From: Candidatus Latescibacterota bacterium | GTDB lineage: Bacteria > Latescibacterota > UBA2968 > UBA8231 | Assembly (NCBI GenBank): GCA_965197905.1 | Contig: CBDAOB010000004.1 | Location: 160,001-224,000, forward strand | Reading direction: 5' to 3' | DNA length: 64,000 nt | Shown: in pieces, positions 10,299 to 22,016 of the stretch | How positions within the stretch are numbered: position 1 is the stretch's first letter | Layout of the letters: every line of letters begins with the position of its first letter | Translations under genes and position numbers: made by a program | The notes under the pieces: model-generated | What the model was told of the DNA's origin: nothing | Seen by the model: only the letters and a program-made list of their open reading frames with translations | The model's database searches: none

Positions 10299-10324
10299 AA
10301 TAAATAATTATCGGAACTATCTAC

Positions 10325-10353
10325 TTGACAAAGCAGCCCATAAGTAGTATATT
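10325..10353 (+). promoter_or_regulatory. transposase promoter overlapping the left inverted repeat
   Basis: TTGACA (10325-10330), 17 bp, TATATT (10348-10353). Confidence 0.65.
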
Positions 10354-10385
10354 AACAAGTAGAAAGATTGAAAAAGGGGCTGAAA

Positions 10386-11315
10386 ATGACATTCGAAGAA
10401 ATCGCACAATTCTCGGAAGATGAAGCCCGAAGGCATCTGGAAAATCTGCGTTGGCTGAACGGCATTACATGCCCTCACTGTGAATCCAAGGACGCTACAC
10501 GCATGGAGGGCGAGGCACATCGCAAGGGTGCCATACAGTGCAACGACTGCCGCCAGCAGTTCACGGTTACCGTGGGCACCGTGATGGAGTCCACAAGGGT
10601 TCCGCTGCGCAAATGGATCATGGCCTTTCATCTCTTGTGCTCCAGTAAGAAGGGGTATAGCGCCCTTCAGTTGAAACGCGATCTCGGCTTGGGATCTTAC
10701 AAGACGGCTTGGTTTATGGCTCACAGAATCCGCTATGCGATGAATAACGGCCCCCTAAGTGAGAAGCTCAAGGGAACAGTTGAGATGGACGAAACCTATG
10801 TAGGCGGCAAACCCCGCAACAGAAGTCCGAAAAACAAGCGTGGGCGCGGCACGAAAAAGAAGCCGGTAGTAGCATTGGTAGAGCGTGATGGCGAGGTCCG
10901 ATCTAGGGCCGTGGAGAACGTCAAGGGAAAGACGTTGAACGCGGAGATCCTACAGCACGTGGACAAGCGGTCTACGCTTGTCACCGACGAACTACCGCAT
11001 TACACGCACGCTGGACGATTCGTGGGCGATCATCGCGTGATCAGACATAACGGAAGAGAGTACGTGAGACGAGAAGGGTTACTGTTGGTGACGACAAACA
11101 CGGTCGAATCGTATTTCGCCCTGATTAAGCGTGGCCACTACGGCGTGTATCACTCCATGAGCAGCAAGCACATAGGGCGGTATGTGGATGAATTTGCATT
11201 CCGATGGAACCACAGGAAGGCGAATGATTCAGAGCGGCGCGATACCGCGATTCAACAAGGGGAGGGGAAACGATTGATGTACTCAGAAAACCATTGTACT
11301 CAAGAAAATGTTTAA
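10386..11315 (+). CDS. IS1595-family (ISXO2-like DDE) transposase
   Basis: Zn ribbon CPHC...CNDC, HTH (SALQLKRDLGLGSYKTAW), DDE motifs VEMDETYVGG / LVTDE / NTVESYF, YVDEFAFRWN. ATG at 10386; alternative TTG at 10368. Confidence 0.95.
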   Translation: MTFEEIAQFSEDEARRHLENLRWLNGITCPHCESKDATRMEGEAHRKGAIQCNDCRQQFTVTVGTVMESTRVPLRKWIMAFHLLCSSKKGYSALQLKRDLGLGSYKTAWFMAHRIRYAMNNGPLSEKLKGTVEMDETYVGGKPRNRSPKNKRGRGTKKKPVVALVERDGEVRSRAVENVKGKTLNAEILQHVDKRSTLVTDELPHYTHAGRFVGDHRVIRHNGREYVRREGLLLVTTNTVESYFALIKRGHYGVYHSMSSKHIGRYVDEFAFRWNHRKANDSERRDTAIQQGEGKRLMYSENHCTQENV

Positions 11316-11319
11316 CGTT

Positions 11320-11360
11320 GTTGACATTTGGTTGACATTTGCTAGCGGATTTATTACTCT
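11320..11360 (+). repeat. tandem 11-bp repeat GTTGACATTTG x2; the second copy forms a sigma70-like promoter
   Basis: Copies at 11320-11330 and 11331-11341; TTGACA (11332-11337), 17 bp, TACTCT (11355-11360). Confidence 0.6.
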
Positions 11361-11386
11361 AACAAATAACCTTTGTTGTACAAAGT

Positions 11387-11467
11387 TGGTAGCCCCACCG
11401 GGACTCGAACCCGGAACCTGCGCCGTTCGATGGGTCCAGCTGCTCTATCCAGTTGAGCTACAGGGCC
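11387..11467 (-). tRNA. tRNA-like gene (tRNA-Arg-derived) with aberrant anticodon arm, 81 nt, encoded CCA
   Basis: GGCCCTG-TA-GCTC AACTGGATA GAGC-A-GCTGGACCCATCGAACGGCGC-AGGTT-CCGGG TTCGAGT CCCGG-TGGGGCT-A-CCA. Acceptor (three G:U pairs), D and T arms fold; the anticodon region is 21 nt instead of 17 and contains TCG-AA. Confidence 0.8.
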
Positions 11468-11491
11468 ACCAATTTTTCTGACAAAGGACTA

Positions 11492-11563
11492 TGGTGGAGG
11501 CAGGGGGAATTGAACCCCCCGGTACAGGTGTCTAAGTCCACTACCGGCTACCTAGCTGCCCCC
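11492..11563 (-). ncRNA. 72-nt tRNA-like RNA with Ala acceptor stem and no D-stem, resembling the tmRNA tRNA-like domain; encoded CCA
   Basis: GGGGGCA...TGCCTCC-A-CCA pairs fully with G3:U70 and A73. T arm GGGGG TTCAATT CCCCC; central hairpin CGGTA-GTG...CAC-ctg-TACCG. Confidence 0.7.
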
Positions 11564-12060
11564 ACGCTGGATGTGAAAATCCCGTTACCAGATTCCCCGG
11601 TAACGGGATTTTCCTCTTTGTGCAAAGATTCTCGCCATTTCATAGTCAGTCGGTATGCTGACTTACCGTTGCGCTTACCGGCTCGCTCAATGATTTTGCG
11701 CTTCCCAAATGATTTTAAGACCGTGTGAGCTGATCCAAGGAGATTGTCAGATTCGCTATGCAACTTCCCTTGCTCCTTGAGCTTCTGCAATTCGTCTCTT
11801 AATTCTGAGGGGTTCCAAGCCCGAGTGTGGTTATTGCGAAAAATGCTGGTAATCGCTTCGACGGGACCGACCGCTTCCACTCTTAGCGCCACCTCACTGT
11901 TGCCGTTACCCGAAATCGGGAACTGCGGTCCCTTGAGTAAGGTTTTAACGGCAGCCAGTTGCTCTTGTACGGCATTAAGCTCACGTTGGATCTCGTTGAC
12001 CTTATTGAGCAAGAATTTGCGTCGATCAGCTAAGGCGATTTCAAATTGCCTGTCGTCCAT
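11548..12060 (-). CDS. IS passenger protein: N-terminal coiled coil plus putative winged-helix domain
   Basis: ATG at 12060 with RBS AAGGAG. Heptad-like LLNKVNEIQRELNAVQEQLAAV; C-terminal helix pattern followed by KIIERAGKRNGKSAYRL (wing-like). Confidence 0.7.
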   Translation of the reverse strand: MDDRQFEIALADRRKFLLNKVNEIQRELNAVQEQLAAVKTLLKGPQFPISGNGNSEVALRVEAVGPVEAITSIFRNNHTRAWNPSELRDELQKLKEQGKLHSESDNLLGSAHTVLKSFGKRKIIERAGKRNGKSAYRLTMKWRESLHKEENPVTGESGNGIFTSSVGAAR

Positions 12061-12138
12061 TGTTGATCTCCTTGGTTGGAGAATTACTGGCCCCAAGCTT
12101 AAAATAGCTTACGCACCAAGTTAGCACAAGTTGAAATT

Positions 12139-12339
12139 ATGGGTAAGAATAAAAGCACCAAATGCACCAAGAATGATAATCAAGAATTAGAACAAGCGCA
12201 AGGTGGGTTATCCTTGCACCCCTTGAACCCTGACGAAGCCCTCGCGGCGTTTCTGGACACGCCACCACCAGAGGATGAGCAGGGTAATAAAAACCGAAAA
12301 CGAGGTGCTGATAAAAAGAAGGATACGAGGGAAGAGTAG
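12139..12339 (+). CDS. small IS passenger ORF, 66 aa
   Basis: ATG-initiated ORF divergent from the passenger gene and ending just inside the right IR; core LSLHPLNPDEALAAFLDTPPP between charged tails. Confidence 0.55.
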   Translation: MGKNKSTKCTKNDNQELEQAQGGLSLHPLNPDEALAAFLDTPPPEDEQGNKNRKRGADKKKDTREE

Positions 12340-12426
12340 GTCTAAGTGCTAATAAATACGTGGCTTTGCGATAGCTTTCTTAAGTAGATAGTTCCGATAA
12401 TTATTACTCTCATTGGCACGGAATTC

Positions 12427-18705: not shown

Positions 18706-19149
18706 GTGCAAGACATACGCGTACTGCTAACACGGGCGAGCGAGAATCCGGTGCCGGCCTACGAAACGATTGATAGCGCCGGTATGGATCTCCGGGCACA
18801 TCTAGCGGCACCGCTGAAGATTGGTCCTGGAGAACGGGCACTGATTCCCACCGGACTGCACATGGAGATTCCCCGCGGTTACGAGGGACAGGTGCGACCG
18901 CGCAGCGGTTTGGCGCTCAAGCGTGGGCTCACCGTGCTCAACGCCCCAGGAACCATAGATGCCGATTACCGTGGCGAGGTGGGTGTCATTCTGATCAACC
19001 ACTCGGCAGAACCTCAGTCCATCGAGCACGGCGATCGGATCGCCCAACTGGTGATCGCGGCTGTAGTTCAGGCGGAGATGCTGGAAGTGGACAAACTGGC
19101 TGACACCGACCGTGGCGTGGGAGGATTCGGATCGACGGGACAACGGTGA
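18706..19149 (+). CDS. dut: dUTP diphosphatase
   Basis: SAGMDL, RPRSGLA, GTIDADYRGE, RIAQL, RGVGGFGSTG. Confidence 0.97.
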   Translation: MQDIRVLLTRASENPVPAYETIDSAGMDLRAHLAAPLKIGPGERALIPTGLHMEIPRGYEGQVRPRSGLALKRGLTVLNAPGTIDADYRGEVGVILINHSAEPQSIEHGDRIAQLVIAAVVQAEMLEVDKLADTDRGVGGFGSTGQR

Positions 19150-20875
19150 AGCGCTGTTTCTCAAAAAAATATCTGCTCGCCCTGGGCGCGGTTCTGCCGG
19201 TGTCGATCGGACCGTTATTCGCCGCTGACATAAGTGGATTCGTGCGCGACCAAAGCAACGGCGAAAGCCTGCCTTTTGTCAGCGTTTACCTCCAGGGAGA
19301 ACAGCACGGCGGAATCAGCAACGAGAGTGGCTACTATGCGATAACGAGGATCCCGCCGGGACGTTACACCATGGCGGCTTCGATGGTCGGATACAAGACC
19401 TTCAAGAAGGAAGTCGATCTGGGCACCGGCGACCTGGTGCTCGACCTGCTGCTCTCCGAAGAAGCGATCGAGTTGGAGACGGTGGTCGTCGAAGCGGAGC
19501 GGGAGGAGATAGAGAGCTTCGATATCAGCCCGGGGCGAACGGTCCTGCAGGTGAAGGAGCTCAAGGCGGCTCCCGCAGCGATAGAAGCCGACCCGATTCG
19601 CACGATTCAAACCTTGCCCGGGGTGGCGGCGCTCTCTGATTTTTCGGTCGGTCTCTATGTCCGCGGGGGAACACCCGACCAGAATCTCGTGCTGCTGGAC
19701 GGCACCGACGTCTACAACGCCTCCCATCTCTTCGGCCTGTTCAGCACCTTTCCCGCCGATGCGGCGAAAAGCACCGAGCTGTTGCGCGGTGGGTTTCCGG
19801 CGAAATACGGCGGCCGTCTCTCTTCGGTCTTGAACGTACTAACGGATGAGGGCAACAAGCAGAAATTCGAGGCCGAAGGCGGGGTCAGTCTTCTCAGCTC
19901 GCGACTGACGGTGCAAGGTCCGGCGGGCAAGGGATCGTGGCTCGTTTCCGGTCGGCGCACCCATCTGGACCCGCTGCTCTCCTACGCCGAGGGGCAGTCC
20001 GACGATCTGGCCAATCTCACCTACAACTTCTTCGACCTTCAGGGAAAAACCCACCAGATCCTGTCCCATAACGATCAGCTGACCGTGGCGGGATACGCCG
20101 GCCGCGACAATCTCAACATTCGTATTCTCGAATTCGAGCCTTGGCGGATTCAACCGCCGGGCCCAGTGCCGCCAACCACTTCATCGCGGGGCTCGAGACC
20201 GAACGGTTCGGATTGAACTTCGATGTGGAGCTCTACTACAAGGACTACGAAGAGCTCTACGAGCTGAACTACGACGAGCAGAACTCCACCGAGATCGGAG
20301 ATATTCTGCGACGGGGGGACGGCGAGGCGTACGGATTCGACGCGCTGATCAAAAAGAGAGCCGGAAAACAGACCGGTTGGGTCTCTTTTTCGGTAGGTTT
20401 GAGCGAACGCACAATCGAGGGGCTGAACCGGAACGCCACGGGAGTGGAGAAGCCGTTCAAATCGAAATTCGATCGCAGATTCTCGCTCAACATAGTGCAT
20501 TCGTGGCGGCTTGGCCGGCTGTGGGCGCTCAACAGCAGATTCGCGCTCGCCTCAGGCCAGCCTTACACCCAGGTCCTTGGTCGCGGGGAGTTGGAAGTGC
20601 CCTCCGGTTTTCGTTACACCTTCCAGGACAAAGGCGACTTGAACGGCGTTCGGCTCCCCGACTACCGGCGCCTGGACATCTCGCTTCAGCGTCGCTTCGA
20701 ATTCCAAAATTGGGGAATGAAACTCTACCTGCAGGCGGTAAACGTCACGAACCATGAGAACATCTTCAATTACTACTGGAGTGAAGGCAATATCGAAAAA
20801 CGCAAGCCCGGGAAGCGACGGGAGATCTCCATGTTGCCGCTGCTGCCGAGTCTTGGTGTGGACTTCAAATTTTGA
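19146..20875 (+). pseudogene. TonB-dependent receptor with a frameshift and probable internal deletion near 20120-20145
   Basis: N-terminal carboxypeptidase-regulatory-like and plug domains (VRGGTPDQN, GGFPAKYGGRLSS). C-terminal barrel in another frame (RLPDYRRLD...GVDFKF). The central barrel strands appear to be missing. Confidence 0.8.
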
Positions 20876-20885
20876 GAGGCCATCG

Positions 20886-22016
20886 ATGATGGGTCGCCTA
20901 ACACCGTTGCTTCTTATGTGCACGATTTTTTCGGCGTGCAGCAAGCCGAATGAAGTCGAAAACGCGGACCAAACGGTTGTTGTCGAAGCCTACCTTACAC
21001 CGGGGCGCGACCCGCTGGTGAAGTTGCGCAACACCCTGCCGCCAGAGCAGTTCTTCGAGGGGCTCGAGGATACCCTCGCGGAGGCTGAGGTGAGAATCCT
21101 GGTGGACGATCAGACCTTTGTCCTGTCCGAAATGCCGGCGGGTTCGGGGTTGTATTCCATTTCGTCCTCCACGCTGCCTATCGAGTCCGGAAAGACCTAC
21201 GCCCTAGAAGTTGATTCTCCGGATTCCCCTCAGGTGCGCGCCCGGACGACCGTTCCGTTCACCGCTGAGGTGACCGTCGTCGTTGGAGACACCATTACCT
21301 ACCAGCAGTCCTTTTCGGAAGGATTTGGCAATCTGCAGCATCCGGGGGAATTTTTCTGGAACAAGAGCGAAAATGCGGCAGGTTACGTTATCATCGTGGA
21401 AGCGGTGGAGGTCAGGTCGCTGCCGATTTCAGCCGAGCCGCTCACCGCCGATCTCGATAGTCTGGTTGCCCTCAGGGAACGACTGGAGGGTTTGGCGAGC
21501 GCCGATTCCCTGGCGGCGTTGGATCGGCAGATCGAAGCGTTGCGGCGGTTTTTTGATGAAAACATTTCGTTGGTGCGCGCCAACGGCGACACCATCCGCT
21601 GGCTACGCGACCGGCAACAGGAGGATTGGGACGATATCGAGGGTAAAAACTCGACGGAGGGTAAGAAGTGGAGGGATCGGCGTGGCCATCTGTTTAGTCA
21701 GCGCAAGATCGACTACTGGGTTCCGGTAGACACGCTGCGCAGCGACTTCTGGTGGTTGGGGGTTCGGTTCGAAGGCGAATACCAGGTCCGACTGCAGTCG
21801 GTTGACCAGAACTATTTCGACTATTTTTCGACTTTTTTCAACGGCGAATCGGGCAACGACGGCGACAACGGCCCGGTGTTCCACGTGGAGGGTGGATTGG
21901 GCGTGTTCGGCTCTTATGCTGAAGACAGCTTCCGCGTCTGGACTCGCAGGGGAGAGAATGGACTAACGATGAAGATCGTGACGGAAGAGGCTGCGGATCG
22001 GGCTAACCGCCGCTGA
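20886..22016 (+). CDS. DUF4249-like lipoprotein, partner of the TonB-dependent receptor
   Basis: Lipobox FSAC, VVVEAYL, GKTYALEV, C-terminal HVEGGLGVFGSY. Confidence 0.75.
   Translation: MMGRLTPLLLMCTIFSACSKPNEVENADQTVVVEAYLTPGRDPLVKLRNTLPPEQFFEGLEDTLAEAEVRILVDDQTFVLSEMPAGSGLYSISSSTLPIESGKTYALEVDSPDSPQVRARTTVPFTAEVTVVVGDTITYQQSFSEGFGNLQHPGEFFWNKSENAAGYVIIVEAVEVRSLPISAEPLTADLDSLVALRERLEGLASADSLAALDRQIEALRRFFDENISLVRANGDTIRWLRDRQQEDWDDIEGKNSTEGKKWRDRRGHLFSQRKIDYWVPVDTLRSDFWWLGVRFEGEYQVRLQSVDQNYFDYFSTFFNGESGNDGDNGPVFHVEGGLGVFGSYAEDSFRVWTRRGENGLTMKIVTEEAADRANRR

Follow-up and report, generated by a model that had tools for sequence, protein, structure and literature searches.

A 72-nt RNA gene lies on the minus strand at positions 11492..11563 of the window, the 64,000-nucleotide stretch of Candidatus Latescibacterota DNA analysed here. 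Judged by sequence comparison, it is a genuine, conserved gene with AlaRS identity and covarying stems. The initial annotation had described it as a mini tmRNA-like RNA; it is probably not a mini-tmRNA. We favor, with a probability of roughly 40%, an anticodon-variable adaptor derived from tRNA-Ala, which would mistranslate or back up lost tRNAs. The gene and its relatives share one fold, alanine identity, an anticodon-loop consensus enclosing a hypervariable and mostly non-alanine triplet, and a mobile context.

The 72-nt RNA Gene

The sequence and coordinates given in the initial annotation, the 7-bp acceptor stem with G3:U70, A73, the encoded CCA and the 5-bp T arm were all confirmed. All elements are read on the minus strand. 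The 5' strand of the acceptor stem (11557..11563) pairs with 11496-11502, which places G3 at 11561 and U70 at 11498. It abuts, without any U8/A9 linker, a short D hairpin of 3 bp with a GG-bearing 4-nt loop (11547..11556). A 27-nt arm follows (11520..11546), whose 5-bp outer stem (11542-11546 with 11520-11524) abuts the T arm and whose interior consists of an internal loop, two G-C pairs and a 9-nt loop; there is no variable loop. Numbered back from the T stem, the anticodon-type loop is C32 U33 [UAG] A37 C38 (11530..11536), and its UAG triplet (11532-11534) is predicted to read the Leu codons CUA and CUG. The T arm, of 5 bp with a UUCAAUU loop (11503..11519), and the discriminator A73 with the encoded CCA (11492..11495) complete the molecule.

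The gene scores 77.4 bits on the family model R1, a value that is not independent, the model having been built with the 72-nt RNA among its members. An acceptor and T-arm upper half of this kind occurs once in the window and in 0 of 300 window shuffles. The inner hairpin drawn in the initial annotation differs from that of the family fold, which is the more stable of the two (-31.2 vs. -29.4 kcal/mol; MFE -31.6), and the folding energy is in itself unremarkable (z -1.1). The anticodon stem has two Watson-Crick pairs only, positions 27-43, 28-42 and 31-39 being mismatched. U occupies position -1, as in 45 of 79 members. A 15-bp perfect hairpin (11575..11613, minus strand) stands 11 nt upstream, and 23 of 77 relatives have a comparable hairpin ahead of them, against a mean of 5 and a maximum of 11 in shuffles. 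No sigma-70-type promoter beyond chance level was found on the minus strand. Contigs from the RNA runs of one study cover the region (X4, 11384-11599; X5, 11439-11599); these are contigs only, hold a small share of the words and, DNA carry-over being possible, are uninformative on transcription, strand and level. Their common stop at 11599 cannot be taken as a transcript end, nor can anything be concluded from the stretches that they leave uncovered.

A Family of Linker-Less tRNA-Like RNAs

Pattern searches returned about 80 distinct relatives. The patterns, built from two copies (the 72-nt RNA and L053), led to 96 metagenome and 14 viral stretches. The matches amount to 92 distinct sequences, of which 91 have paired acceptor and T stems; the only pairs imposed in these stems were acceptor pairs 1-3 and two T pairs. 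We kept 67 sequences with a D segment of at most 10 nt and at least 3/5 pairs in the outer arm stem. Most phage forms with an Ala anticodon were removed by this filter, which therefore lowers the count of Ala triplets reported below. Another 24 sequences were dropped, some of them scoring 54-69 bits on the family model and probably irregular members, and 1 failed. In a 69-row alignment, 96.5% of the cells are paired and 325 are compensatory, with 0 of 500 shuffles as high, figures that owe something to selection and are set against shuffles ignoring kinship.

Two further searches relaxed the constraints. Without the acceptor constraint, 31 loci gave 11 distinct sequences with a paired acceptor; G3:U70 is present in 9/11, A73 in 11/11 and an encoded CCA in 4/11. 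Without the D-segment constraint, at least 113 loci were found; among the matches listed, 49 are distinct with full acceptor and T stems, and 16 of these have the abutting arm. The initial annotation was mistaken in reporting no D-stem. A 3-bp hairpin whose loop carries GG is formed by nucleotides 8-17; among the matches listed, its first two pairs hold in 16/16, including 8/8 in which the letters differ, whereas shuffles gave a mean of 3.6 and a maximum of 9.

The family fold is a four-way junction without linkers, made up of a 7-bp acceptor, a 2-3-bp D hairpin, an arm of about 27 nt and the T arm, for a length of 70-74 nt and a 7/5 acceptor/T arrangement. The acceptor and the T arm are the best conserved parts. 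Homologs with covarying acceptor stems, which the initial annotation had suggested looking for, do exist: acceptor pairs 4-7 covary and are paired in 69/69. GG is found in the D segment of 77/79 members (one row is mis-cut). The outer stem of the arm, of 4-5 bp, covaries and reaches the T stem (68/69 paired, 43 compensatory); because pairing in the arm extends as far as the T stem, the family has no variable loop. The middle of the arm is irregular, and then 2-4 pairs close a loop of 7-9 nt. RNAalifold returned no consensus pairs in this inner (anticodon) stem. One precise architecture is found over sequences about 70% identical or less to the 72-nt RNA.

Members are rare, with 1 in 150 other genomes of the phylum. 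A pattern search covering 167 other genomes of the phylum had matches in 2 of them, neither one a member by eye. With the 72-nt RNA region or L227 as query, blastn on plasmids and phages produced only short matches or matches to ordinary tRNAs. At L345, L356 and L360 (about 1487-1559), RNAs of the family shape have C73 and an acceptor that is shifted and not of the alanine type.

The Anticodon-Type Loop

For 78 members, the mis-cut row being left out, loop positions were assigned by counting backwards from the T stem. Position 32 is a pyrimidine in 71/78, U33 is present in 61/78 and A38 in 45/78. Position 37 is never U (A 41, G 15, C 22). G29/G30 and C40/C41 in members are remnants of the anticodon stem. 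Neither these remnants nor loop positions 32, 33, 37 and 38 were fixed by the search patterns. When loops are called from their stems, U33 is found in 60/75, for a shuffle mean of 14.6 and a maximum of 25 in 1000.

Triplet 34-36 occurs in 25 kinds among 54 arms of 27 nt, including Gly 12, Val 10, Asp 7, Leu 5, Ser 5, Gln 4 and Ala 2, with a register that in many members could be off by one base. In the set clustered at 80% identity, C36 is present in 19/38, as expected from an Ala (NGC) ancestor, and NGC itself in only 2. G37 accompanies G36 as in ordinary tRNAs (5/10 vs. 5/44; nominal p 0.013, for the best of three registers and related sequences).

Compared with canonical tRNAs, the family has a Y32-U33-NNN-R37-A38 loop (R37 in 56/78) at the canonical distance of 12 nt before the T stem. 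It lacks the U8/R9 linker, the 3-4-bp D stem, the variable loop and the U8/A14/G15-C48 core. The canonical anticodon stem has 5 bp; there are 2 pairs in the 72-nt RNA and 2-4 in most relatives. No match to RF00005 is listed at the position of the 72-nt RNA.

The Carrier Transposon and the Genomic Neighborhood

The gene is carried by a 2,085-bp IS1595-family transposon (10312-12396), with the features expected of such an element. The IS1595-family (ISXO2-like DDE) transposase is encoded at 10386..11315 on the plus strand (PF12762, PF12760; NF033547 201 bits, cut-off 75). The element has 23-nt terminal inverted repeats (left, 10312..10334, plus strand, beginning with CGG; right, 12374..12396, minus strand), and an 8-bp target-site duplication flanks them (10304..10311 and 12397..12404). 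In the same-genus genome G060 the site is empty and the duplication present as a single copy, and a contig of the DNA run X2 connects 10303 with 12397 over 8 letters common to both sides (depth 3.8, short side 22). Positions 11294-12060 are also passed over by an X2 contig that has unknown letters in their place, suggesting an exchangeable cargo behind the ribosome-binding site.

This minus-strand cargo comprises a 170-aa ORF, the 15-bp hairpin, the 72-nt RNA and a second irregular tRNA. The passenger ORF (11548..12060, stop at 11548-11550) matches no Pfam, NCBIfam or PADLOC family, winged-helix-like being a weak Atlas lead only. No homologs were found in 167 other genomes of the phylum or in viral contigs; there are only three, at 65%, all without DNA context. 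In these, 25 residues over the hairpin region are near-identical and the ends then diverge, the homologs continuing with another, longer tail. The 16-nt overlap between the end of the ORF and the RNA, which the initial annotation had taken to expose the mRNA to 5' processing, is real and, in view of these homologs, looks incidental. The tail of the passenger ORF looks like a by-product of RNA-level constraint. The second irregular tRNA (11387..11467, minus strand), just downstream, has a D arm nearest to host tRNA-Arg and a broken anticodon stem. Its "Met" call by ARAGORN is doubtful because without 11435-11438 the loop centers on CGA; these positions are missing from the X2, X4 and X5 contigs, as a strain variant or an assembly error.

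Among 80 loci with related IS1595 transposases, 79 are without a 72-nt-type RNA and the same layout is found in one, L053, a Bryobacterales MAG. Irregular tRNA genes lie downstream of the transposase in 11/80 such loci (L016, L025, L034, L038, L041/L042, L043, L053, L080, L084, L087), element ends being defined for only part of them; several of these tRNAs have long variable arms and Pro-type anticodons. The genome under study (G000) has about 12 further IS1595-like transposase copies or fragments on several contigs (30-43% identical), none with a 72-nt-type RNA. IS1595-family elements with passenger genes, which we take to be those named transporter IS, are alike in their DDE transposase, inverted repeats, 8-bp AT-rich duplication and passenger ORF. 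Unlike in the known ones, the cargo here includes tRNA-like genes, and no report of IS1595 elements with tmRNA or tRNA passengers was found in the literature searched.

More generally, a transposase, integrase or TnpB query matched at 26/56 family loci of at least 1.5 kb (IS1595 10, IS1-like 10) and at 0/13 phage-type tRNA-Ala loci, a lenient control since the queries were taken from family loci. A HigB-like toxin or its HTH partner matched at 7/73 loci (L223, L227, L228, L249, L272, L290, L307), with loops of the CUUACCA/CUUAGCA type. In the three inspected, the RNA is divergent from that operon, and at L228 and L272 a stretch that resembles a promoter by eye is overlapped by a palindrome. 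Sharing one loop type, the HigB-linked loci may represent one lineage. Tandem copies with different loops occur, three at L269 and two at L446, and several members adjoin long-variable-arm tRNAs with mismatched anticodons. An unnamed family of 220-320-aa proteins is encoded divergently upstream at L221, L231, L247, L268 and L285.

Closest Known tRNAs

The allo-tRNAs and polycistronic irregular tRNAs (Mukai et al. 2017, PMC5389517; Krahn et al. 2020, PMC7609411) resemble the family in that an anticodon-blind synthetase sets identity, in some cases through G3:U70. Also shared are foreign anticodons of many kinds, associations with transposons and toxin-antitoxin loci, and polycistrons of odd tRNAs; as in allo-tRNAs, identity in the family is uncoupled, at the sequence level, from a diverse anticodon. 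However, allo-tRNAs have an 8/4 or 9/3 arrangement with a long variable arm, whereas the family is 7/5 without a variable arm or an 8-9 linker, with a 2-3-bp D hairpin and 70-74 nt in all. In the supplementary tables of PMC5389517, five common D-segment motifs of the family are absent, and the D-segment 10-mer of the 72-nt RNA itself matched one unrelated allo-tRNA.

Linker-less phage tRNA-Ala(UGC), for example in phiCbK-like Caulobacter phages, also lack U8/A9 and carry G3:U70, with a short D hairpin right after the acceptor and a similar length and loop position. In contrast to the family, they have the cognate anticodon, a longer anticodon stem and 3-4 unpaired variable bases, and sit in phage tRNA arrays; those scored reach 42-53 bits on R1. 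A proper Ala anticodon is present in 43 distinct linker-less relatives from phages, 27 of them with the same 12-nt spacing, and several phiCbK-like phages annotate such genes as tRNA-Ala. Genes of this type (L089-L208, e.g., L091 and L115; L212, L213, L215) are often unannotated or inconsistently annotated. The structure of the family differs from the allo-tRNAs and from every Rfam family at threshold, and no description of it was found in the literature, where coverage is thin for subscription journals. It is apparently an undescribed structural variant of non-canonical, identity-uncoupled tRNAs.

A Proposed Rewired Alanine Adaptor

The simplest derivation would start from a tRNA-Ala losing U8, A9 and the 5' strand of the D stem. 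Old positions 22-26 would then pair with old variable-loop positions 44-48, the 2-3-bp D hairpin would still present GG to the T loop and, from general tRNA structure, the anticodon domain would stay near its canonical height. The phage linker-less tRNA-Ala with a UGC anticodon is a plausible intermediate. We propose that transcription would start from a promoter inside the right end of the IS1595 element, that RNase P would cut the RNA out of a polycistronic transcript, and that the host AlaRS would alanylate it via G3:U70 whatever the loop. EF-Tu would carry the alanylated RNA to the ribosome, where a non-Ala codon would be read at low efficiency, here placing Ala at Leu CUA/CUG through UAG. 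G3:U70 allo-tRNAs with foreign anticodons did insert Ala in E. coli, according to the accessible part of PMC5389517. The likely benefit would be a reserve for decoding codons after toxin or phage conflicts have left the corresponding host tRNA cut, modified or starved, at the price of mild mistranslation.

Several observations count against such an adaptor. The inner stem is weak, with the null RNAalifold result there, C37 in 22/78 is unlike working tRNAs, the core U8/A14/G15-C48 is lost and the triplet register is uncertain. The neighbors of family members revealed no common protein partner. Finally, several transposon- or toxin-linked irregular tRNAs were, as reported by Mukai et al. in the accessible part of PMC5389517, inactive in translation or charged but unused.

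More tentatively still, and with the odds against it, the linker-less four-way-junction alanine adaptor could be a new tRNA structural class, whose anticodon, being ignored by AlaRS, would be freely reprogrammable. Spread by several families of transposons, the adaptor would be an emergency decoder that sustains translation upon the destruction or blockage of a particular host tRNA, and deliberate mistranslation would be a mobile trait.

tmRNA Likeness and Alternative Explanations

The host genome has its own full ssrA and smpB elsewhere. The 3' 28 nt of the 72-nt RNA, whose comparison with host ssrA the initial annotation had called for, are close and not identical to it (25/28, vs. 19-22/28 for host tRNA-Ala). 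Because the three differences keep pairing, the RNA is not an att remnant, in agreement with the initial annotation. An att-site remnant of ssrA was also rejected on position, inside a DDE element far from ssrA. A separate island of about 19 kb seems to be integrated at host ssrA (G000 C4:1301039-1320635) and has a 27-nt 3' remnant at C4:1320609-1320635. The best Rfam family is tmRNA (RF00023) for the 72-nt RNA and for 14/20 relative loci, all below cut-off. The 72-nt RNA scores 34.1 bits there for a gathering score of 47; this score is not diagnostic, since host tRNA-Ala genes score 28-44 bits, and the cut-off is a weak test, since the tmRNA of mycobacteriophage DS6A also misses it (43.2 bits). 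Y RNA (YrlA), permuted tmRNA and mascRNA were discarded, with only weak Rfam matches (E 0.13-7).

This likeness underlies the idea of a tag-less tmRNA tRNA-like domain that would bind SmpB and titrate it or free non-stop ribosomes untagged. The tmRNA/SmpB reading of the initial annotation finds weak support in the ssrA-like end, in the G3:U70, A73 and CCA acceptor, in UUCG, present in 24/79 D segments, and in a host with SmpB and ssrA; the residual likeness carried by UUCG may leave SmpB binding conceivable for the family. There is also a precedent in DS6A, whose tmRNA, according to the accessible parts of PMC4131195 and PMC11915505, is tag-less and TLD-only. Like the 72-nt RNA, it is small, with G3:U70/A73, no tag frame and a single arm separating the D segment from the T arm, a general likeness shared by CDS-less mitochondrial and plastid tmRNAs. 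However, the D loop of DS6A is unpaired, 14 nt long and contains UCGAC, and a connector of 4 nt is retained, whereas the family has a D stem and no connector, and the anticodon-type loop is a feature of the family and not of DS6A, which scores 32.6 bits on the family model (54-80 for the members used to build it). Indeed, the D loop of tmRNA is described as having no stem (PMC3968760, accessible part), and its variable (connector) loop as supplying A334 of the SmpB pocket (PMC8363625, accessible part). In the family, the 2-3-bp D stem is present and the arm is paired up to the T stem, with no room for A334. The D-loop UCGAC-type motif (U17, C18, G19) is absent from the 72-nt RNA, and UCGA occurs in 0/79 D segments; the 0/79 count of the GAC connector is not evidence, this motif having been excluded by design in later patterns. 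A tmRNA helix cap, moreover, would not require an anticodon-loop consensus, and we regard a tag-less tmRNA domain as improbable.

Somewhat better placed, although still unlikely, is a non-decoding tRNA mimic serving as a stable, Ala-chargeable decoy, which would sequester anticodon nucleases or tRNA-modifying toxins through its variable loop or else occupy EF-Tu or tRNA-sensing regulators. It draws on the same fold and loop data as the adaptor and stays close behind it because the anticodon stem is weak and C37 frequent, which fit recognition without decoding. The HigB or HTH loci, with their divergent RNAs, and the published charged-but-unused irregular tRNAs (PMC5389517) point in the same direction. 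On the other hand, a decoy has no obvious need for strict Ala identity, PADLOC matched 0/30 neighbors, and the HigB-linked loci, of one loop type, are possibly one lineage. HigB-type toxins, moreover, cleave mRNA rather than tRNA. The good conservation of the acceptor and T arm would also suit an Ala-RNA donor for non-ribosomal transfer, by aminoacyl transferases acting on the cell wall, lipids or peptides, or some other role for the charged end alone; it is very improbable, as no recurring transferase was found in 124 neighbor ORFs (one GNAT) and U33 and A38 are left unexplained. Least probable is a decaying tRNA-Ala relic hitch-hiking on transposons. Rarity, related transposases that do without the RNA, which is dispensable for transposition, and the X2 contig skipping the cargo would fit, but the compensatory changes, even if partly due to selection, and the one precise architecture largely refute it at the family level. 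The adaptor derived from tRNA-Ala is the reading that we tentatively retain.

Significance and Other Observations

If decoding is true, the family would be the most reduced bacterial tRNA scaffold known to us, its core departing from the textbook form, and would naturally supply codon-specific mistranslation moved by insertion sequences. It would bear on the number of core contacts that a tRNA needs and offer a compact suppressor scaffold. If the RNAs are decoys, they would point to conflicts with phages and toxin-antitoxin systems having an RNA layer so far unrecognized. In both cases, function is directly testable with the roughly 80 natural variants. Standard tools overlook these genes, ARAGORN detecting 2/60 member loci and Rfam scores staying below cut-off. 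Elsewhere in the window, a TonB-dependent receptor-like gene (19146-22016) appears split over overlapping frames (19146-20216 and 20141-20875) and is possibly frameshifted.
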